Part shown: piece by piece, positions 3,454 through 13,664 of the stretch
Layout of the letters: each line of letters starts with the position of its first letter
How positions within the stretch are numbered: position 1 is the stretch's first letter
Assembly (NCBI GenBank): GCA_965204795.1
Contig: OZ242012.1
Location: forward strand, 206,650-270,649
Reading direction: 5' to 3'
Length of the DNA stretch: 64,000 bases
From: Thermodesulfobacteriota bacterium
GTDB taxonomy: Bacteria; Desulfobacterota_D; UBA1144; Nemesobacterales; Nemesobacteraceae
Program-made: the position numbers and the translations under genes
The notes under the pieces: generated by a model
The model's input: only the letters and a program-made list of their open reading frames with translations
Told to the model about the DNA's origin: nothing
The model's database searches: none

Positions 3454-4053
3454 GTGTCCGTAAGCGTGAAAGTGATGAAGCGCCCCCGCCTTTCCTTCTG
3501 GGAGAAGCTCTACCTGCCCCAGGTGCTGAGAGGGCTCGCCATCACCCTTAGGCACATAACGCGCTTTCGGCCCATAACCGTGAAGTATCCCGAAGAGGTG
3601 AAGGCCCTTCCCGAAAACTACAGGGGGCTTCACGTGATGCCGGGAGACGACGAGGGGCGCATAAGGTGCGTGGCGTGCAAGCTCTGCGAAATCGCGTGTC
3701 CCACCCAGGCGATCTCCATAGTGTCGGAACCGGCGGACGACTACGGCGTCGAGAGGCGTCCCAGGGTGTACAACATAGACTTCATGCGCTGCGTTTTCTG
3801 CGGGTTCTGCGTGGAGGCGTGTCCCTGCGACGCGCTTCGGATGGGAATGAAGTACGAACTCGCGTCCTACAGCCGCGCGGGGCTCGTTCACACCAAGGAG
3901 GTTTTCTTCGACCCCGACGTGAAGAGCCTGGCGCCCAGGGACAACGCGAACTTTCTCTACGGCATGGGACTGGGAGAGATACTGGATTCTTCCGAAGAAG
4001 TCTCCGAAGCGAAGAAGCTTGACGGCACCTATTCCGTGAAGCGGAGTTCCTGA
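3454..4053 (+). CDS. nuoI: NuoI-like 2x[4Fe-4S] ferredoxin subunit (NADH-quinone oxidoreductase subunit I family), orphan
   Basis: Two CxxCxxCxxxCP motifs (CVACKLCEIACP and CVFCGFCVEACP) with NuoI-like spacing and an N-terminal region YPEE. GTG start at 3454; ATG at 3475 is an alternative. No other nuo genes are adjacent. Confidence 0.8.
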   Translation: MSVSVKVMKRPRLSFWEKLYLPQVLRGLAITLRHITRFRPITVKYPEEVKALPENYRGLHVMPGDDEGRIRCVACKLCEIACPTQAISIVSEPADDYGVERRPRVYNIDFMRCVFCGFCVEACPCDALRMGMKYELASYSRAGLVHTKEVFFDPDVKSLAPRDNANFLYGMGLGEILDSSEEVSEAKKLDGTYSVKRSS

Positions 4054-4107
4054 AGCCTTCCTCGGCTGATTTTTTGACGACTTCCGCGAAACTCTTTGTT
4101 TTAACCG

Positions 4108-4130
4108 TTACGGAAATTTGACATTTCCGT
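4108..4130 (+). promoter_or_regulatory. near-perfect palindrome TTACGGAAAT-ttgac-ATTTCCGTCA overlapping a TTGACA -35 box upstream of higB; candidate HigA operator
   Basis: ACGGAAAT (4110-4117) and ATTTCCGT (4123-4130) are exact reverse complements. TTGACA lies at 4118-4123, about 80 bp upstream of the higB ATG, in an AT-rich intergenic region. Confidence 0.4.
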
Positions 4131-4205
4131 CAAGTGCGTTTAACTTTGCGGAAAGTTTAGGGAGCAATGTACTTCAGTTCTATTTGAGAGCGTTGAAGTT
4201 GAGTT

Positions 4206-4499
4206 ATGCGGATCATATCCAAAAAGACGTTAAGGAAGTTCTGGGAGCGTTACCCTGACGCCAAAAAGGGTCTTGACAGTTGGTATCATGAAGTTAAGAG
4301 AGAAAACTGGGACAGTCCGGCCAAAGTTAAAGCCAGGTACAACGACGCCAGGATTATTGGAGGGAATCGCGTGGTTTTCAAGATCAACGGCAATAAATAC
4401 AGATTGGTGGTGGAGATTACGTATAAATACCGCATTGTCTACATATGTTTTGTTGGTACCCATGCGGAGTATGACTCTATAAACGTAAAGGAGGTGTAA
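4206..4499 (+). CDS. higB: type II toxin HigB family (RelE-fold mRNA interferase)
   Basis: 97 aa. ...VFKINGNKYRLVVEITYKYRIVYICFVGTHAEYDSI matches the HigB_toxin signature (..GN.YRLI..I.....I.FI.THAEYD). Lies in a low-GC pocket. Confidence 0.85.
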   Translation: MRIISKKTLRKFWERYPDAKKGLDSWYHEVKRENWDSPAKVKARYNDARIIGGNRVVFKINGNKYRLVVEITYKYRIVYICFVGTHAEYDSINVKEV

Positions 4500-4501
4500 A
4501 A

Positions 4502-5722
4502 ATGGCCGATATTAAACCGATTCGCACCGAAGCGGATTATGAGGCCGCGCTGGCGCGCATCAGAAAGATTTTTCATTCCGACCTTGGAACTCCCGAGGGC
4601 GATGAGCTTGATGTTCTGGCCGACTTGGTTGAACGGTATGAAGACAGACATGAAGTGGTCGACTGTCCCGACCCCGTCGACGCGATCAAGTTCCGCATGG
4701 AGCAGGCGGGGCTGAAGCAGCGCGACCTGATTCCTTACGTGGGAAGTCGTGCCAAGGTTTCGGAGGTTCTTTCCGGCAAGCGTGCTATAACGATGTCCAT
4801 GGCGCGCGCGCTGCACGAACATCTGGGCATTCCTGCGGATGTTCTGCTTCGGAAACCGGGCGGGACGTTTGAGAATCCGTTGAGTGATATTCAATGGAGC
4901 CGATTTCCGCTCAAGGAAATGGCGAAGCGTAAATGGATTCCCGATGCTCCCGATCTTGAGGCGCACGCGGAAAAATCCGTCGGCGAAATGATGAGAAAGG
5001 CCGGCGGATGGGACGAGACGCGCGCCGCCGCGCTGTTCAGAAAAAACGATCACCGGTATGTCAACTCCAAAACGGATTCTTACGCTCTTAAGGCCTGGTG
5101 CCTGCAGGTCTTGGTGACCGCAACCCAGAATCCCCCGCCGGCAAACTACAGGTCGGGCACGGTCACTCCGGATTTTCTCAATAAAGTCGCCCGCATCAGC
5201 CGGTCGGAAAACGGCCCGCGGCTCGCGAAAGAGTTCTTGGAAAAGCACGGGATTTCCCTGGTGACTCTGAAGCATTTACCGAGAACTTATCTGGACGGGG
5301 CCGCCTTGCGTCTGGGCGACGACCGACCGGTGATCGGGCTTACCCTGCGTCACGACCGCATAGACAGTTTCTGGTTCTGCCTGCTGCACGAGCTCGCGCA
5401 TCTGGGACTTCACATGGACAAAGACGACGGGGAAGCTTTCGTCGACGATCTGACTCTGCGCGAAACCGGAGCGGCGGCGCGGGATTCGAAAGAAGCGCAG
5501 GCGGACCAATGGGCGGAAGAAGCGCTGATACCGGAATCGGTCTGGGAAACAAGCGAGGCGCGACTGCGACCCACCGCCATGGCCGTTATCGACCTGGCGA
5601 ATTTTCTGAATATTCATCCGGCTATAGTCGCGGGCAGGGTGCGCCGCGAACGGGACAATTACCGCCTGCTCTCCCAGTTCGTCGGAAACGGCATGATCAG
5701 GCCGCAGTTCGATTTTTCCTGA
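4502..5722 (+). CDS. higA: HigA-family HTH antitoxin fused to an ImmA/IrrE (M78) zinc-metallopeptidase domain
   Basis: Perfect SD AAGGAGGTG sits 7 nt upstream. The N-terminal ~115 aa match the canonical HigA motifs (IKPIRTEADYEAALARI...GTPEGDELDVLADLVERYEDRH...PDPVDAIKFRMEQAGLKQRDL...SRAKVSEVLSGKRAITMSMARALHEHLGIPADVLL). The C-terminal ~250 aa carry HEXXH (LLHELAHLGLH) plus a downstream E, typical of the COG2856 ImmA/IrrE family. It starts 3 nt after the higB stop. Confidence 0.85.
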   Translation: MADIKPIRTEADYEAALARIRKIFHSDLGTPEGDELDVLADLVERYEDRHEVVDCPDPVDAIKFRMEQAGLKQRDLIPYVGSRAKVSEVLSGKRAITMSMARALHEHLGIPADVLLRKPGGTFENPLSDIQWSRFPLKEMAKRKWIPDAPDLEAHAEKSVGEMMRKAGGWDETRAAALFRKNDHRYVNSKTDSYALKAWCLQVLVTATQNPPPANYRSGTVTPDFLNKVARISRSENGPRLAKEFLEKHGISLVTLKHLPRTYLDGAALRLGDDRPVIGLTLRHDRIDSFWFCLLHELAHLGLHMDKDDGEAFVDDLTLRETGAAARDSKEAQADQWAEEALIPESVWETSEARLRPTAMAVIDLANFLNIHPAIVAGRVRRERDNYRLLSQFVGNGMIRPQFDFS

Positions 5723-5725
5723 CGG

Positions 5726-7576
5726 CTAAAGCCAGTCTTCTCCGCCGAAGATGTCGGCTTCCTCGTGGCGAAACCCGGGTTCCGGGTCGCTGTTGCGAAA
5801 TCCCCTGAACTGCAGGAGTCCCGAAACGGCGGACTTTATCTGCCTTCTCTCGGCCACCAGGTGAACCCCGCCGTTGTCGTCGTAGAACTCCGAAGACATT
5901 ATCTTCGGGTCGACCCCCCGGCCGCCGCTCGTGAGCTTCACCACCCTGTCTCCGGCAAACGCTATGGTCGCCTTTTTCTCCGCTATTATGAAATCCCCCT
6001 GCACGGCGTAGCTCGCGAGCGCCCCTCCGGTCGTCGGGTGTCCCAGAATGGAGATGTTCGGAAGCCCGTGCTCCCGAAGTCTCATCAGCGCCTCTATGGT
6101 CTTGGCCATCTGGTAGAGCGCGACGGTTCCTTCCTGCATGCGCGCTCCTCCGCTCACGGTGACCGTTATCAGGGGAAGCCTGTGCTCCACGGCGTAGCTC
6201 ACGACCATGTTCATCTTCTCCCCGAAAACGCTGCTCATCGACCCGCCCATGAACCGGAAGTCGCAGACGGCCACCGCCACGGGCATTGCGAACATCGTGC
6301 CGTAGCCCGTGACCAGGGAGTCCCTGGAGTCGGTCTTTCCGGCGAGCTTCTGCCTGGAGGACGCGTAGTTGAAAAACTTGTACGCGGGGTCTATGTCCTC
6401 CACGGCCAGCTCGGGCTCTATTTCGTGAAACGACTCCCCGTCGAGCAGGAAGTCGAGGTAGTCGTCGGAGCTCAGCGCCTCGGGCCTGTGGCAGTAGGGA
6501 CAGGAGGAGTTGTTGGCGTGAAGCTCTTCCTTGGTGAGCTGGCTCTTGCAGCCGGGTCGGATCGTCTTGCCCTGGCCGTCCTTTTCGTCGTTGCAGAAGT
6601 GGGGCTCGGAGCCGTAGATGGCTATCTGCATCTCCGATATGTCGTGGCTCTGCCTGCTTCCGCTGAAGTAGTTGGGAAGCCAGGCCTTTATCTTTTTCGA
6701 TATTCCCTCGTAGATTCTCCGCTGCTTCTTTACCCGCCCGCACCTTCTTATCTTTTCCCGAAGCTCCTCCGAGAGGCGCCTCGTCTCCGAGTTCTCGAGC
6801 TCCCGCACGGCCGCGGCGAGCGACTTTCCCAGGCTTTTCAGCGTCTGGGTCATGTAGCCGGGTTTTCCGAGCGGCGCCTCCTTCACTATCTCGTCTATTA
6901 TTCCGTAGCGCTTCATGTGCACGGCGGTGGGCTGGAGCACCTCGAGGGCCTCGGCCACCTTGTCCGCGCTTCGAAACAGTATCGCCGAGCACCCCTCGGC
7001 GGTTATGACGGAGTATTCGGCGCGCGACAGCATGAGCCTCCTGTGCCCGAGCTGTATGGCTATGGCGCCCCCGCTTCCCCCGAGTCCCAGCACCGTGGTC
7101 ACGGTCCTCGTGCGAAGCGAGATCATCTTCGACTGGCAGTAGGAGATGAGCCACGACTGGAGCTTCTCGGCCGAGTACTCGTAGGGATCCCCTCCCACGG
7201 TGTCGACGAACGTGAAGAGCGTGAGGCCGTTTCGCTCCGCGTAGTCCATCATGCACCACGAAAGCCCGTACCCGTCGGCCTTCACCATTCCGTAGTTGAG
7301 CGCCGCCCTTTCCTTTTCGCCCGAGGGCGTCTGCTGGGCTATCACGGCCGAGAGCGTTCCCGTGGGCTTGAACCTCGCCGTTCCCACTATCACCGAGGGG
7401 TCGTTGACGAACTCTATCTTTTTTCCCGAGGGGGCGTGGATGAAGCTTCTGAATCCAGAAAGCTCGTTCCAGGGAGTGAAGTCCGTGAAAAGCGCCGAGA
7501 GCACGTGCTTCGACTTCACGCGGTCGTAGGACTTGGCCTCTTCGTGGGACTGGAGGATTTTGGGGGTCTTCGCCAT
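5726..7576 (-). CDS. accA-accD: acetyl-CoA carboxylase carboxyltransferase, fused alpha (AccA) and beta (AccD) subunits
   Basis: 616 aa. The N-terminal half matches AccA (FVDTVGGDPY...LGLGGSGGAIAIQLGHRRLMLSRAEYSVITAEGCSAILFRSADK). The C-terminal half matches AccD, with a zinc-ribbon CPYCHRPE, then FAMPVAVAVCDFRFMGGSMSSV and SGGARMQEGTVALYQMAKT. Confidence 0.88.
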   Translation of the reverse strand: MAKTPKILQSHEEAKSYDRVKSKHVLSALFTDFTPWNELSGFRSFIHAPSGKKIEFVNDPSVIVGTARFKPTGTLSAVIAQQTPSGEKERAALNYGMVKADGYGLSWCMMDYAERNGLTLFTFVDTVGGDPYEYSAEKLQSWLISYCQSKMISLRTRTVTTVLGLGGSGGAIAIQLGHRRLMLSRAEYSVITAEGCSAILFRSADKVAEALEVLQPTAVHMKRYGIIDEIVKEAPLGKPGYMTQTLKSLGKSLAAAVRELENSETRRLSEELREKIRRCGRVKKQRRIYEGISKKIKAWLPNYFSGSRQSHDISEMQIAIYGSEPHFCNDEKDGQGKTIRPGCKSQLTKEELHANNSSCPYCHRPEALSSDDYLDFLLDGESFHEIEPELAVEDIDPAYKFFNYASSRQKLAGKTDSRDSLVTGYGTMFAMPVAVAVCDFRFMGGSMSSVFGEKMNMVVSYAVEHRLPLITVTVSGGARMQEGTVALYQMAKTIEALMRLREHGLPNISILGHPTTGGALASYAVQGDFIIAEKKATIAFAGDRVVKLTSGGRGVDPKIMSSEFYDDNGGVHLVAERRQIKSAVSGLLQFRGFRNSDPEPGFRHEEADIFGGEDWL

Positions 7577-8045: not shown

Positions 8046-8336
8046 CTCTTTCCTGCCTCCTCTCCATTGTTTTTCTTCCCCTGCCCCTGTAGGACTAAAA
8101 TACAGTTCCGGCGGGGGATTGTCAAAGCGGTGTCGGTTCAGACGCCTCAGGATGCTTTTCCGCTTCCACGGGCCGCCGCATGGTGTATGTCGTGAACGAT
8201 TGAATCTGCCCGGCAATCATGCGTCGGATTCCGCCGTGACGGCAAGCCGTTGACAAGACGGACGGTTATCGACCATACTTAAGAACGATTACGGTTGCGC
8301 GGGAGAAACTCTTCTTGAGTAACCAGGGGGATTGGC

Positions 8337-8525
8337 ATGAGCAAAAAGGAGAAAGTCCAGGACAACTATCTTGAAACGTTGGAAAAGGTTAAACAGCAGT
8401 ATCAAGAATATATCGAGGTCAGCAAAATTTACGAACTGCCCACGTTTGAAGAAGAAAAACCGATAGAATACCAGCCCCCTAGCCCCGAACATCCACTGAC
8501 GACCAATACCTTCGACGTAAAGTAA
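8337..8525 (+). CDS. hypothetical small acidic protein (62 aa), first gene of a low-GC two-gene cassette
   Basis: AGGGGGA lies 6 nt upstream of the ATG. The product MSKKEKVQDNYLETLEKVKQQYQEYIEVSKIYELPTFEEEKPIEYQPPSPEHP... is E/K-rich with no TM segment. Local GC is markedly below the window average. The stop is 1 nt before the next start. Confidence 0.5.
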   Translation: MSKKEKVQDNYLETLEKVKQQYQEYIEVSKIYELPTFEEEKPIEYQPPSPEHPLTTNTFDVK

Positions 8526-8526
8526 A

Positions 8527-9480
8527 ATGGCTTCTTGGAGTGAACTGGCAAAGGCTCTTGCCAATCAGGGAAATGTTGTCAACTGGCTCTACGGTTCTCT
8601 GGCGGGTCGGCTGGGGGAAGTATCGAAGCTTCGCAAAGGAACTTCCGTCATTTTCTACGCCTCCGCTTTTCTGCAGAAAAAAAACTCCACAAACGTGTCA
8701 ATCGACCGTGAGGACATCAACGGTTTTATGGACGCAATATACAAAGCTCAAACCGATAATGGCCTTACCTTGATACTTCACACGCCTGGCGGGGACATTT
8801 ACGCCGTTGAGAGCATAGTTGATTATTTACACGCCAAATTCTCCAAGATTGAAGTCGTAGTGCCGTACTTGTCCATGTCCGGCGGGGCCATGATGAGTCT
8901 TGCTAGCGACCTTGTGATACTAGGCAAGCAAAGCCAGCTTGGTCCAATTGATCCTCAGTTTTCCGCGGGAAACAAATCGTATTCCGCCAGAGCGATTGAG
9001 GAGGGATTCAACAATGCGAAAAAAGATATAGAGAACGATACCAGTCTGGCTCACCTGTGGGCTCCTATCCTGCAAAGCATGGGACCTTCGCTCATCACGG
9101 AATCTCAGAGAGCCTTGTCTTACAGCAAGGAATTAGTAAAGAAATGGCTCAAAGAGCGAATGTTCAAGGATGAAGACGAGAAGGAAAGAGAAAGAATCAT
9201 CAACGACATAGCGGGATATTTTAACGCTGAGAAAAAAGACGGCGACGAGGGAACAAAACTCGGGCAAGTTCACGTTCACGGGCAGAGGATAGGATTTCAA
9301 AAGCTCGAAGAACTTGGAGTAAGGGTGGAAAAGCTTGAAAAAAGCCAACCGTTGCAGACCGCCGTATTGACTGCATACCATTTGATGACTCTGATTTTTG
9401 AGAGGTCTCCTTCCCTGAAATTCATATCCAGCGACCAAGGCACTATGTGGTCTAAACAGCAACAAATTCGTACGCAATGA
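8527..9480 (+). CDS. ClpP/crotonase-fold serine peptidase of the SDH (S49-like, 'serine dehydrogenase proteinase') family
   Basis: 317 aa. ...GLTLILHTPGGDIYAVESIVDYLHAKFSKIEVVVPYLSMSGGAMMSLASDLVILGKQSQLGPIDPQ shows the SppA/ClpP-like oxyanion and Ser motif arrangement typical of PF01972. It sits in a low-GC island between erpA and the M24 peptidase. Confidence 0.65.
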   Translation: MASWSELAKALANQGNVVNWLYGSLAGRLGEVSKLRKGTSVIFYASAFLQKKNSTNVSIDREDINGFMDAIYKAQTDNGLTLILHTPGGDIYAVESIVDYLHAKFSKIEVVVPYLSMSGGAMMSLASDLVILGKQSQLGPIDPQFSAGNKSYSARAIEEGFNNAKKDIENDTSLAHLWAPILQSMGPSLITESQRALSYSKELVKKWLKERMFKDEDEKERERIINDIAGYFNAEKKDGDEGTKLGQVHVHGQRIGFQKLEELGVRVEKLEKSQPLQTAVLTAYHLMTLIFERSPSLKFISSDQGTMWSKQQQIRTQ

Positions 9481-9580
9481 CAAATTCTTGTAACGCCAAA
9501 CACTTTCGCATAGTCAAAAAAATTAAGAGAATTCTTGGTTCTCGCTGATTCGCGAAAAATCCACAGCGCAATATTTCCAC

Positions 9581-10711
9581 ATGAGCAGGACCGCCTACCT
9601 CATAATCGATTCGAGCGAAGCCAACTCGGACCTTTACCACAGAACGGGATTCTTCGTTCCGGACCCCGTCATATTCTTCGAACGCGACGGAAAGACCACG
9701 CTCGTTCTGAGCGACCTCGAGCTTGAAAGGGGCGAAAAGCGGGGCGCCGCCGACGAGATAGTCTCCTTCTCGCGCTGCGTCGCCGGGCTTCGCGGCAAGG
9801 GAAACAGGTCTCCCTCGACGGCGGAGGTCGCCGCCGCGGTTCTTCAGGAAAGGGGAATAAGAAGCCTCGTCGTCCAGAGAACCTTTCCCGTCTTTTTCGC
9901 CGACGCTCTCCGCGAGGCCGGTTTTTCCGTGAAGACCGCGAAGACGCATTTTCTTTTCGAGGACCGTCTCGTAAAATCCCCCCGGGAGGTCTCGTTCATA
10001 AAAAAGGCGCTTTCCGTCACGGCGCAGGCGATGAGACGCGCGGTCTCGCTCGTCTCGTCCTCGACTCCGAAGGGAGGACTTCTTTTTCTCGGGAAAAAGC
10101 CTCTCACCTCCGAGACGGTGAGGTCGGAAATCGACTCCTTTCTCGCCGCCCGGGGCTACCTCGCCTCGAACACCATAGTGGCGGGAGGGGTTCAGGGCTC
10201 GATGCCCCACGAGAAGGGCTCGGGACCGCTTCGGGCCGGGTGGCCCGTCGTGATGGACATATTTCCCCGCTCCCAGGAAAACGGCTACTTCGGCGACATG
10301 ACGAGAACCGTGGTCAGGGGGGAGCCTTCGCGGGAGCTTCTGCGGATGTACGACGCGGTGCTCGGGGGTCAGAAAACGGCGCTTTCGATGATAAGGGACG
10401 GCGCGAGGTCGAGGGACGTGCACGCGGCGGTGGAAGAGTTTTTCTCCGGGCGGGGTTTCGAAACGGGAGTTTCGGACTCGGGAAAGCCCCGGGGGTTCAT
10501 TCACTCCACCGGACACGGCCTCGGCCTCGACATCCACGAGCCGCCGAGGATTGGTCCGGGAAAGGAGATTCTCAGGGAGGGAAACGTCGTCACGGTGGAG
10601 CCCGGGCTTTACTACGAGAGTCTCGGGGGAGTGAGGATAGAGGACGTGGTGGTGGTCGGGCGCGGGGGGTGCGTTAACCTCACGAGATGCTCGAAGAGAT
10701 TCAGGGTGTAG
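9581..10711 (+). CDS. M24 family Xaa-Pro aminopeptidase / dipeptidase
   Basis: 376 aa. The pita-bread-fold metal ligands fall in the contexts ...GDMTRTV..., ...[13 protein letters not shown]... and ...VVTVEPGLY...GGVRIED. Confidence 0.85.
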
Positions 10712-12336: not shown

Positions 12337-12450
12337 CTTTTTCTCCCGTCCGACCGGCGCGGGATTTTTTTCTCGGGGAAAAGGGCGCGGAAACGGACAT
12401 GATGAAATGATGACGGACGGCGGGAATTTTTCAAATTTTGGTACACGTCA

Positions 12451-12478
12451 TTGAAACTGTTCATTTATGGAGTAAAAT
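12451..12478 (+). promoter_or_regulatory. sigma70-like promoter (TTGAAA-N16-TAAAAT) upstream of the Panacea-domain gene
   Basis: TTGAAA at 12451-12456, a 16-nt spacer, then TAAAAT at 12473-12478. AAAAGGGAGA RBS precedes the ATG at 12500. Confidence 0.35.
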
Positions 12479-12499
12479 TTAAAAGGGAGATTTTATATA

Positions 12500-13018
12500 A
12501 TGCGGGAAAGCATTTGCAAAGCGGCACACATCGCGAATTTGATCCTCAACAGAGCGGATGCGGAAGGGCGAGATATAAGCATTTTGAAACTGCTCAAGCT
12601 GGTCTACATATTTTTCGGCTGGACAAGCGCCTTTCATACCAACCGCCCCGACCTCTTTTCAGACCGCATAGAAGCTTGGAAATACGGTCCCGTGATTCCC
12701 TCGCTTTATTACGAATTGCGCAGATTCGGCAGAAAGCCTATTAAAAGGGATCGCGCGCTTGTCTACGACCCTTCGGCCGATGCATCTCCCAGAGTGGCGC
12801 TGGAAAGCGAAATTGATGATAAAGAAGTACTTAAAACTCTGGAACTTCTCTGGAACTCGTATAAGGATGCCCCGGCGGAGCACATAGTCGCCCTGACACA
12901 TCAGGAAGATACTCCATGGCGGAAAGTTTATGACGAGAAAAAATATGGTACAGAGATTCCGAAGAATCTTATTCGGGATTACTACAAAGACTTGTATGAA
13001 AGGTTTGCTGCTAATTGA
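12500..13018 (+). CDS. Panacea-domain (DUF4065, SocA/PanA-type) antitoxin-like protein
   Basis: ILKLLKLVYIFFGWTSAFHTNRPDLFSDRIEAWKYGPVIPSLYYELRRFG fits the DUF4065 signature (KLqKLlYyaqgw...pLf.d.ieAWk.GPVvp.lY). Low-GC island. The stop overlaps the next start. Confidence 0.8.
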   Translation: MRESICKAAHIANLILNRADAEGRDISILKLLKLVYIFFGWTSAFHTNRPDLFSDRIEAWKYGPVIPSLYYELRRFGRKPIKRDRALVYDPSADASPRVALESEIDDKEVLKTLELLWNSYKDAPAEHIVALTHQEDTPWRKVYDEKKYGTEIPKNLIRDYYKDLYERFAAN

Positions 13019-13362
13019 TTGAAGGTAATAATAAAAGAAGACTGGTTGCCCGAGCTCTGCGGGAATTGATAGAAGAGCAGAGCGAGCAAAATGAATCGCA
13101 CTACGAGGGTCTTGCCGATGAGCGCTACAGGGAAGAAACTGCCGTAATAAAGCAGGAACGGGAATTACAAAAAAGAGTTGCGCGCTGGGTGATGTGGGTG
13201 GTTTCTGTGTGGCTTTTTTTCATAGCCGTCTTGTTGGTTTGCGTCGGGAGTTCTCAGCTCAATTACTCCGACGGCGTTCTTATCGCCTTGCTTGCGACGA
13301 CCACCGCCAACATCATAGGCTTGGCGTATTTCATGGCGAAGGGATTTTTCCCAAACAAGTAG
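13015..13362 (+). CDS. small two-TM membrane protein, candidate PanT-type toxin (115 aa)
   Basis: TTG start at 13015 overlaps the TGA stop of the Panacea gene (TTGA), indicating translational coupling. The charged N-terminus (RRLVARALRELIEEQSEQNESHYEGLADERYREE) is followed by two hydrophobic helices (WVMWVVSVWLFFIAVLLVCV and VLIALLATTTANIIGLAYFMA). Confidence 0.55.
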   Translation: MIEGNNKRRLVARALRELIEEQSEQNESHYEGLADERYREETAVIKQERELQKRVARWVMWVVSVWLFFIAVLLVCVGSSQLNYSDGVLIALLATTTANIIGLAYFMAKGFFPNK

Positions 13363-13664
13363 CTTTTTGCTGTTGACTTCAATCTCCCGTTTCAGGGGCC
13401 TACACAAGGGTGGCAGGTTGTTGCGTTGGGTCGTTTCGCGGAGAAAAGCGGTTTTTTCAGGACGGCGCGTTCGACGCGGGCTTGAGAACGAAATTTCGGA
13501 AAAAACGGAGAAATCACCGCTTCCCGCGCGGAGATTCCGAGCCGGGTGGGATTGATTTTTCCTGTTCCATCCTTTATTATTGGTCGCATGTTTGCCGGCG
13601 GGGTCGCCGGACGGAAATGCCGCTCCGCTCCCGCAGGCCCTTTCCGGAAAGGAGGTATGCAAAG

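Follow-up and report, generated by a model that had tools for sequence, protein, structure and literature searches.

A two-gene HigB and HigA–M78 fusion operon inserted between core genes of a Thermodesulfobacteriota bacterium, and exchange of its promoter-proximal module between strains

The window analysed here is a stretch of 64,000 nucleotides from a Thermodesulfobacteriota bacterium (contig OZ242012.1 of assembly GCA_965204795.1, positions 206,650 to 270,649; coordinates below count from its first letter). The element in question is an accessory cassette in this window (4054–5722, forward strand, delimited by comparison with empty sites) that comprises a candidate promoter, higB, and a gene encoding a HigA-like module fused to an M78 (ImmA/IrrE/CapP-like) zinc-metallopeptidase region. 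All features of the cassette are given on the forward strand. higB (4206–4499, 97 aa) was identified as an open reading frame (ORF) with Pfam, PADLOC and Protein Data Bank (PDB) matches, and the 406-aa fusion gene (4502–5722) as an ORF belonging to the PD-Lambda-2_B family (PADLOC PDLC03982). Both ORFs sit where the initial annotation, made from the letters of the window, had put them. The spacing between them, given there as 3 nt, is 2 nt: the TAA stop of higB (4497–4499) is followed by ‘aa’ and then by the ATG of the fusion gene at 4502. A putative GGAGG Shine-Dalgarno sequence for the fusion gene, read from the sequence, lies within the end of higB (4490–4494), which implies translational coupling of the two genes. 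In the alternative allele found at the same chromosomal site in locus L081 (5899–6001; see below), the two genes are separated by ~100 nt rather than 2 nt, so such coupling is not universal even at this site. A terminator scan of 3900–5900 called none.

The cassette lies between a gene for a Fer4 protein (3454–4053, forward strand) and a convergent gene for a fused acetyl-CoA carboxylase (ACCase) carboxyltransferase (5726–7576, reverse strand), both core neighbours. The gene order around the site is SSF transporter, Fer4, higB and fusion gene, followed on the opposite strand by the ACCase gene and an iron-sulphur (Fe-S) biogenesis gene. In three relatives (L089, L090 and L091) the Fer4 and ACCase genes are adjacent, 62–196 nt apart, without the cassette (ACCase 76–82% identical). 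From these empty sites, 4054–5722 is an insertion, and the span first delimited for the pair coincides exactly with the 1.67-kb inserted interval. Three near-identical metagenome contigs (L081, L082 and L083), reached through the Fer4 protein, carry a cassette at the same site; an exact-sequence look-up of the window's fusion and ACCase proteins returned no record. Rfam and tRNA scans of the whole 64-kb window gave no match, and hence no tRNA-linked integration site. These comparisons show that the cassette is an accessory, mobile insertion between core genes, best explained as a horizontally acquired two-gene operon. It has the traits of a type II toxin–antitoxin (TA) locus: a co-directional coupled pair, empty sites in relatives, and plasmid copies.

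The HigB protein matched Pfam HigB_toxin (PF09907) with E = 7.1e-30 (103.5 bits, cut-off 27 bits), E. coli K-12 HigB in the PDB (5ifg_A) with E = 1e-5 in a sequence search, and the PADLOC profile PD-Lambda-2_A (PDLC03979) over 97/97 profile positions (7.8e-43). The PD-lambda-2 system of E. coli ECOR42 consists of a HigB-like protein, a HigA-like Xre helix-turn-helix (HTH)/ImmA-IrrE peptidase protein and a P4 beta-like protein (Vassallo et al., 2022, PMC9519451); we refer to these three, and to their homologues elsewhere, as A, B and C. Its matches place the window HigB in the RelE superfamily, as a protein of the E. coli K-12 HigB (YgjN) type. The window protein has F58, R66, G84, T85, H86, E88 and Y89, each kept in at least 90% of 79 sequences. 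In P. vulgaris HigB, the catalytic C-terminal Asp, Tyr and His residues are D90, Y91 and H92 (PMC5027501), and by position the H86/E88/Y89 cluster would correspond to this catalytic C-terminus of RelE-family toxins. Because R66, H86, E88 and Y89 are kept, the window HigB looks catalytically competent, that is, like a working RNase.

The partner protein, at 406 aa, is not a small stand-alone antitoxin (HigA is about 100–140 aa). Residues 1–403 aligned to positions 1–396 of the 402 in the PADLOC PD-Lambda-2_B profile (3.7e-144); for control, the three-gene E. coli locus L087 was run against the PADLOC profiles too, with 3.4e-177 for B and 7.4e-156 for C. The other PADLOC matches of the peptidase region, capP and RmrA, were both weak (RmrA, 1.5e-3), as was the NCBIfam spr1629 match of the fusion (0.07). 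In the N-terminal part, Pfam HTH_3 matched residues 62–115 (1.1e-5, 25.8 bits, cut-off 23), a predicted Xre-type HTH encoded at 4685–4846. Residues 9–112 aligned to E. coli K-12 HigA (5ifg_B, 8e-6, and 5ycl_A; phmmer against the PDB), and this alignment takes in both the N-terminal helical domain and the HTH. With the TIGR02607 HigA equivalog model the fusion scored 17.7 bits, below the 47.7-bit cut-off. Peptidase_M78 (PF06114) matched residues 272–371 (4.3e-6, 27 bits, cut-off 22), within a predicted peptidase region that this match and Foldseek place at about residues 137–406 (4910–5719). The segment LLHELAHLGLH (residues 294–304) holds the HEXXH motif H296-E297-L-A-H300 (5387–5401), and the codon of E331, the putative third zinc ligand, is at 5492–5494. 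Among 79 homologues taken from both the two-gene and the three-gene clades described below, H296, E297, H300, H304, E331 and D335 are at least 97% conserved. The stretch around the active site, residues 286–300, has the strongest conservation in the whole protein (mean 0.90), and the HTH is the most conserved stretch of the N-terminal part. The two domains named in the initial annotation, a HigA-type HTH in the N-terminal part and an ImmA/IrrE-type peptidase with an intact HEXXH...E site, were thus both recovered by profile and alignment.

An AlphaFold2 model of the fusion, built with 85 homologues, had a mean predicted local distance difference test (pLDDT) of 77.6 and a predicted template modelling score (pTM) of 0.65. 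Low-confidence linkers were seen at residues 119–128 (pLDDT <50), 173–189 and 317–327. Foldseek matched the N-terminus of the model to HigA (6jq4 and 6kml_B, probability 1.0), with HigA–DNA complexes among the matches, and its C-terminus to CapP (7t5t, E = 9.4e-3, 179 columns) and IrrE/PprI (3dti and 8sln, of which 8sln is a structure of PprI with single-stranded DNA (ssDNA)). Taken together, profile, alignment and model show a predicted three-part architecture: residues 1–118 form an E. coli K-12-type HigA module, and a flexible linker joins it to a zinc peptidase of the CapP/IrrE kind whose H296-E297-x-x-H300...E331 site is intact. The low-confidence and family-variable segment at about residues 119–131 (4856–4894) is a candidate tether or cleavage region.

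The fusion belongs to a very large protein family. A word-indexed search found at least 7,803 clusters of relatives at 90% identity (E ≤ 1e-5), and the best 120 of those clusters are 403–418 aa long and 63–98% identical. In an exhaustive search of 50%-identity representatives, 4,257 clusters passed E ≤ 1e-10, and 637 of them also passed E ≤ 1e-30; nearly all of the best 150 are about 400 aa and align end to end. At least 484 loci in GTDB species genomes encode a relative, and 80 of these were sampled (L001–L080), spanning Chloroflexota, Desulfobacterota, Proteobacteria, Acidobacteriota, Planctomycetota, Patescibacteria, Spirochaetes, Bacteroidales and others. When the neighbourhoods of these HigA–M78 fusions were surveyed by phmmer, the course proposed in the initial annotation, a HigB-like ORF was found directly upstream on the same strand in 77/80 loci; of the 3 exceptions, one lies at a contig edge and the other two, both from Enterobacterales, have a HigB-like ORF that is degenerate. 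These results show that the two genes are obligately linked across many phyla. The fusion protein also had matches in 432 plasmid records. In the full-length plasmid copies that were opened, the Prokaryotic Genome Annotation Pipeline (PGAP) calls the first gene ‘type II toxin-antitoxin system HigB family toxin’ and the second either ‘ImmA/IrrE family metallo-endopeptidase’ or ‘transcriptional regulator’, and the plasmid two-gene copies lie among other TA genes (RelE/ParE, VapC and Fic). It had been foreseen at the outset that such fusions might turn out to be ordinary, ubiquitous HigA variants. Of this, the ubiquity is borne out, with at least 7,803 clusters and routine PGAP annotation.

The family divides by the presence of a third gene. 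Gene C (~375 aa; Beta_protein, PF14350, 5e-66) lies directly downstream of B in 18/21 of the loci L060–L080 (L060, L062–L076, L078 and L079), as well as in E. coli L087 and L088, and in 0/59 of L001–L059. B is 45–83% identical to the window protein in L001–L059 and 38–47% in L060–L080. The gene downstream of the window pair is the convergent ACCase carboxyltransferase gene, not gene C, and a hidden Markov model built from 17 C proteins found no Beta_protein homologue among all ORFs of at least 40 aa in the 64-kb window at E ≤ 10. Therefore, the window pair belongs to a large, stable two-gene lineage. Lacking gene C, it falls outside the definition of PD-lambda-2, and a defence function is not simply transferable to it. 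In five two-gene loci of Dehalococcoidia/Chloroflexi (L016, L019, L021, L027 and L034), a conserved gene for a 277–282-aa HAD-family hydrolase (PF12710, 1.6e-10) lies 7 nt downstream of B; it may be a different third component in this subgroup.

In E. coli, B of PD-lambda-2 is toxic alone, A rescues the cells, and gene C is needed for phage defence (PMC9519451). The A proteins of E. coli L087 (3132–3395) and L088 (2102–2362) and of Serratia L065 (4681–4995) are 86–87 aa and lack the conserved Arg and the whole G-T-H-x-E-Y segment kept by >90% of the family, whereas A keeps the C-terminal motif in three-gene loci outside Enterobacterales (L064 and L072). Truncation of this kind may relate to the reported harmlessness of PD-lambda-2 A in E. 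coli. The HHpred table for the ECOR42 protein that was tested places its residues 21–91 on PF09907 columns 1–71, and that protein may be longer or full length. As the window HigB looks competent, the result that B is the toxic partner and A the antidote is not one to be assumed for the window pair.

Comparison of the window with L081 located a recombinant segment inside the cassette. The two sequences are ~99% identical over 11.5 kb, but only 59–79% identical across 4055–4744, with sharp boundaries; this AT-rich module comprises the putative promoter/operator region, higB and fusion codons 1–80. The HigB proteins of the two alleles share 56% aa identity, and the fusion proteins differ at 30 positions in residues 1–80 and at 2 in residues 81–406. 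GC content is 0.475 at 4055–4744, 0.583 in the rest of the fusion gene and 0.63 upstream, so that the AT-rich pocket described for the cassette is real but narrower than had been implied. L081 and L008 are 89% identical in A, 90% in B(1–80) and 86% in the peptidase parts. Since the L081 module matches L008 as its peptidase part does, the AT-rich module of the window is the imported one. The reverse case is given by L046 and L058, which are 90% identical in A and 89% in B(1–80) but only 52% in the peptidase parts. Over 2,850 locus pairs, divergence of A tracked that of B(1–80) (partial r 0.44) above that of the peptidase part (0.28). Elsewhere in the window, at 1501–1650 (the 3′ end of a glycoside hydrolase family 3 gene), identity to L081 falls to 83% amid ~99%, and this patch may be another small recombination tract.

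A related pair with another C-terminal extension was found in the Stx1a-converting phage Stx1a_11KH263 (LC744179.1; L092 1193–2534). It encodes a 95-aa HigB with the motif GTHAEYD and a 218-aa HigA-like protein whose first ~130 residues are 45% identical to the window fusion and whose C-terminal extension is not M78. The phage pair lies just downstream of a cI-like repressor gene and is followed by a 134-aa ORF; none of these is annotated in LC744179.1, and the match recurs in no fewer than 22 records of Stx1a phages. The allele swap, the L046/L058 pair, the partial correlations and the Stx phage variant together indicate a co-adapted unit with a separable peptidase, and show that the candidate operator region, HigB and HigA(1–80) form a co-adapted module exchanged independently of the peptidase. 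The swap is consistent with HigB binding to the N-terminal domain as in E. coli HigBA, and the N-terminal helices together with the first HTH helices (residues 1–80, 4502–4741), delimited by the HigA alignment and the allele swap, are the putative region of HigB-binding specificity.

The upstream region holds two kinds of candidate regulatory element. A palindrome search identified a perfect 8-nt inverted repeat, ACGGAAAT (4110–4117) and ATTTCCGT (4123–4130), spanning 4110–4130 and centred on TTGACA (4118–4123). This hexamer was read as the -35 box of a candidate promoter (4118–4146) with a 17-nt spacer and a weak -10 TAACTT (4141–4146). A consensus promoter scan of 3900–5900 called nothing on the forward strand, so that the promoter assignment rests on reading the sequence; at the same place L081 has TTGACG, an 18-nt spacer and TATTAT. 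Only part of the palindrome survives in L008 and none in L081, the closest other allele, and its role is therefore uncertain. Of the initial claim that a palindrome overlaps the -35 box, the repeat around TTGACA is real; the promoter was not called by the scan and the palindrome is not retained in L081. The second element is a family motif. In the 130 nt that precede higB, 71/77 loci contain GGGA[AG]C in one orientation or the other, at a density of 1.53 per 130 nt versus a background of 0.16 (9-fold), with a peak at -60 to -41; many loci have copies paired as GTTCCC-N5-GGGAAC palindromes. In the window, GGGAGC at 4160–4165 (position -46) is a putative half-site of an operator for the HigA HTH, and a degenerate second copy, GAGAGC, is at 4186–4191. 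The motif at 4160 is putatively a better operator candidate than the palindrome.

How might such a pair work? Xre–COG2856 fusions were reported in 2009 to lie often in operons with RelE or PIN toxins, and a protease-controlled three-component TA system was proposed by analogy with LexA (Makarova et al., 2009, PMC2701414, cited by Vassallo et al., 2022). The idea of a protease-controlled antitoxin that accompanied the initial annotation of the window is a re-derivation of this proposal, plausible but not new. A literature search on the mechanism of PD-lambda-2, or on HigB with M78, found nothing beyond these two papers in the library that it covered. We favour, with about an even chance of its being right, a signal-gated TA switch built on a peptidase-controlled HigA module. 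HigB would bind the first ~80 residues of the fusion, and the complex would repress its own promoter through the GGGA[AG]C sites. The peptidase would be held inactive until a signal arrived, ssDNA or DNA damage by analogy with CapP and IrrE/PprI, perhaps during phage infection. Once activated, it would cleave an HTH-type substrate, most economically the HigA module to which it is fused or the linker between them, whether in cis or in trans; cleavage would upset the complex, and growth arrest would follow. Conservation of HEXXH and E331 and of the HigB residues points to selection on both activities.

Several observations weigh against this switch. The linker was searched for a hydrophobic-Arg site as in CapH (F82/R83) or DdrO, and no conserved scissile motif was found after the HTH: residue 117 alternates between Q, K and R, and 121–131 are variable. 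The homologue alignment shows no conserved Cys that would match the cysteine switch of CapP; only near relatives keep both C200 and C293 without change, and T takes the place of C293 elsewhere. The Foldseek E-values of the peptidase part are modest (9e-3 to 5e-2) and the AlphaFold2 model is only moderately confident (pLDDT 77.6). Finally, the E. coli result that B alone is toxic, that A rescues and that C is needed for defence (PMC9519451) is a misfit with a simple model in which the antitoxin is destroyed and HigB freed. Because the window is without the Beta_protein gene needed in E. coli, an anti-phage role is no more than a possibility, and plain addiction or stress control would be equally compatible with the data. 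A bolder version of the switch, which we consider doubtful, is that the two-gene clade is a self-contained sensor of infection or DNA damage: the activated peptidase would cut its own HigA at the linker and free HigB, with abortive infection as the outcome, and the swapping of modules onto a constant peptidase ‘sensor’ would reflect diversifying selection. Phage-encoded antitoxin mimics or cross-talk of paralogous modules could be the pressures behind such swapping.

The toxicity data invite the opposite assignment of roles, in which toxicity comes from the fusion, as an effector that acts by proteolysis without restraint or by misregulation, and the HigB-like protein is its inhibitor or sensor and not an RNase. 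It has direct experimental backing in a homologue, ~40% identical, in which B alone was toxic and A rescued (PMC9519451), and the 86–87-aa A proteins of E. coli and Serratia, without the Arg and G-T-H-x-E-Y, fit a non-catalytic partner; the active site, under the strongest conservation in the protein (286–300, mean 0.90), also speaks for it. We nevertheless regard it as somewhat unlikely for the window pair. The window HigB and >90% of the family, including three-gene loci outside Enterobacterales, keep R66, H86, E88 and Y89, and the A protein tested from ECOR42 may be full length (HHpred 21–91), which leaves a tie between truncation and reversed roles unproven.

Alternatively, the pair could be an ordinary addiction or stress TA system, in which the HigA part counteracts HigB in the manner of other antitoxins until host proteases break it down, while M78 acts on other Xre repressors (of prophages, integrative and conjugative elements or defence operons) or has a structural or dimerisation role. 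The company of RelE/ParE, VapC and Fic genes around the plasmid two-gene copies suits this explanation, as do the Stx phages, whose HigB with HigA(1–130) and a non-M78 extension indicates that the peptidase is dispensable to a working HigBA core; Makarova et al. also considered a cascade directed at other repressors (PMC2701414). A purely structural M78, however, would leave the near-invariant HEXXH...E across phyla unexplained, and the ~400-aa architecture, strictly kept in at least 150 of the 50%-identity clusters, speaks for the peptidase as an integral part. We judge this alternative to be decidedly unlikely. Far less credible still, and rejected here, is that the window pair is a non-functional, decayed remnant of a three-gene PD-lambda-2 locus that has lost its Beta_protein gene. 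The 64-kb window does hold no homologue of that gene, which is required in E. coli (PMC9519451), but the two-gene form is a large, stable lineage (0/59 of L001–L059 with C, versus 18/21 of L060–L080), both ORFs are intact with all conserved residues, and the downstream junction abuts a core gene.

The window holds two further AT-rich pockets. The second (8250–9750, GC 0.43–0.49) is situated between the Fe-S biogenesis gene and a Peptidase_M24 gene. It contains a 62-aa ORF (8337–8525, forward strand) that abuts a gene for a 317-aa ClpP-like SDH-type serine protease (8527–9480, forward strand; PF01972, 1.5e-19), for which PADLOC gave no match. The site is variable among relatives: most of the 317-aa gene is missing from L082, both ORFs are absent from L089, and in L091 their place is taken by an NTase_sub_bind gene and other small genes. 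The third pocket (12400–13600, GC 0.45–0.50) encodes a 172-aa SocA/Panacea-domain protein (12500–13018, forward strand; PF13274, 6.9e-14), and the 3′ end of its gene overlaps a 115-aa ORF (13015–13362, forward strand) with no Pfam match and two hydrophobic, apparently transmembrane stretches. These two genes (12500–13362) probably encode an antitoxin of the PanA type and a small membrane toxin.

The architecture itself is already known, from a prediction made in 2009 and an experimental test of PD-lambda-2 in E. coli that followed in 2022, and the window locus is a routine accessory TA-like insertion. What is new here are the empty sites, the module swap, the GGGA[AG]C enrichment, the two-gene/three-gene split and the truncated enterobacterial A. 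The architecture is very widespread (thousands of clusters in many phyla, including groups of the candidate phyla radiation (CPR), and on plasmids), and the sole experimental report on it is counter-intuitive; the two-gene clade is far more common than the three-gene PD-lambda-2. Exchange of the module suggests where the specificity determinants are located and offers natural chimeras. Together, the clade split, the truncated enterobacterial A and the module exchange make the mechanism easier to test.

Among characterised systems, the E. coli K-12 HigB-HigA pair (YgjN-YgjM; 5ifg, 6kml and 6jq4) resembles the window pair in having a HigB of the same Pfam family and the toxin gene first, and K-12 HigA aligns with residues 9–112 of the fusion over its N-terminal domain and HTH. 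K-12 HigA, in contrast, is 138 aa without a peptidase, and the window fusion has ~290 extra residues. CapH/CapP, DdrO/IrrE (PprI) and ImmR/ImmA share with the window the M78 fold with HEXXH...E and the pairing with an Xre-type HTH. Unlike them, the window has HTH and peptidase on one polypeptide, its HTH part is predicted to be an antitoxin of the toxin-binding type, and its operon encodes a toxin and does not precede a distinct defence or repair regulon. The logic known for these pairs is that a signal activates the peptidase, which then cleaves the repressor; for CapP the signal is ssDNA, and CapH is cut directly behind its HTH (bioRxiv 10.1101/2022.04.27.489752; 10.64898/2026.05.16.725639), and CapH–CapP fusions beside a vapC-like gene have been reported (bioRxiv 10.1101/2022.04.27.489752). 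The capH and capP genes are otherwise separate, upstream of the immune operon and divergent from it, and CapP has a Cys-switch loop, features without an evident counterpart in the window pair. Rosmer RmrA and the spr1629-type Xre–M78 proteins are likewise HTH–M78 fusions partnered with a toxin, but their toxin partners are not HigB and the similarity is confined to the peptidase core.

PD-lambda-2 is homologous over the full length of A and B (7.8e-43 and 3.7e-144), with the same gene order and tight coupling. It differs in gene C, which the window lacks both beside the pair and elsewhere in the 64 kb, in its enterobacterial B, to which the window B is only ~40% identical, and in the sampled enterobacterial A, which is truncated without the C-terminal motif that the window HigB keeps. 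The system predicted by Makarova et al. has exactly the architecture of the window pair, the gene of a RelE-family toxin sharing an operon with that of an Xre-HTH/COG2856 zinc protease fusion; that prediction was made without subfamilies, whereas the window pair falls in one uniform ~400-aa subfamily with a K-12-type HigA N-terminus.

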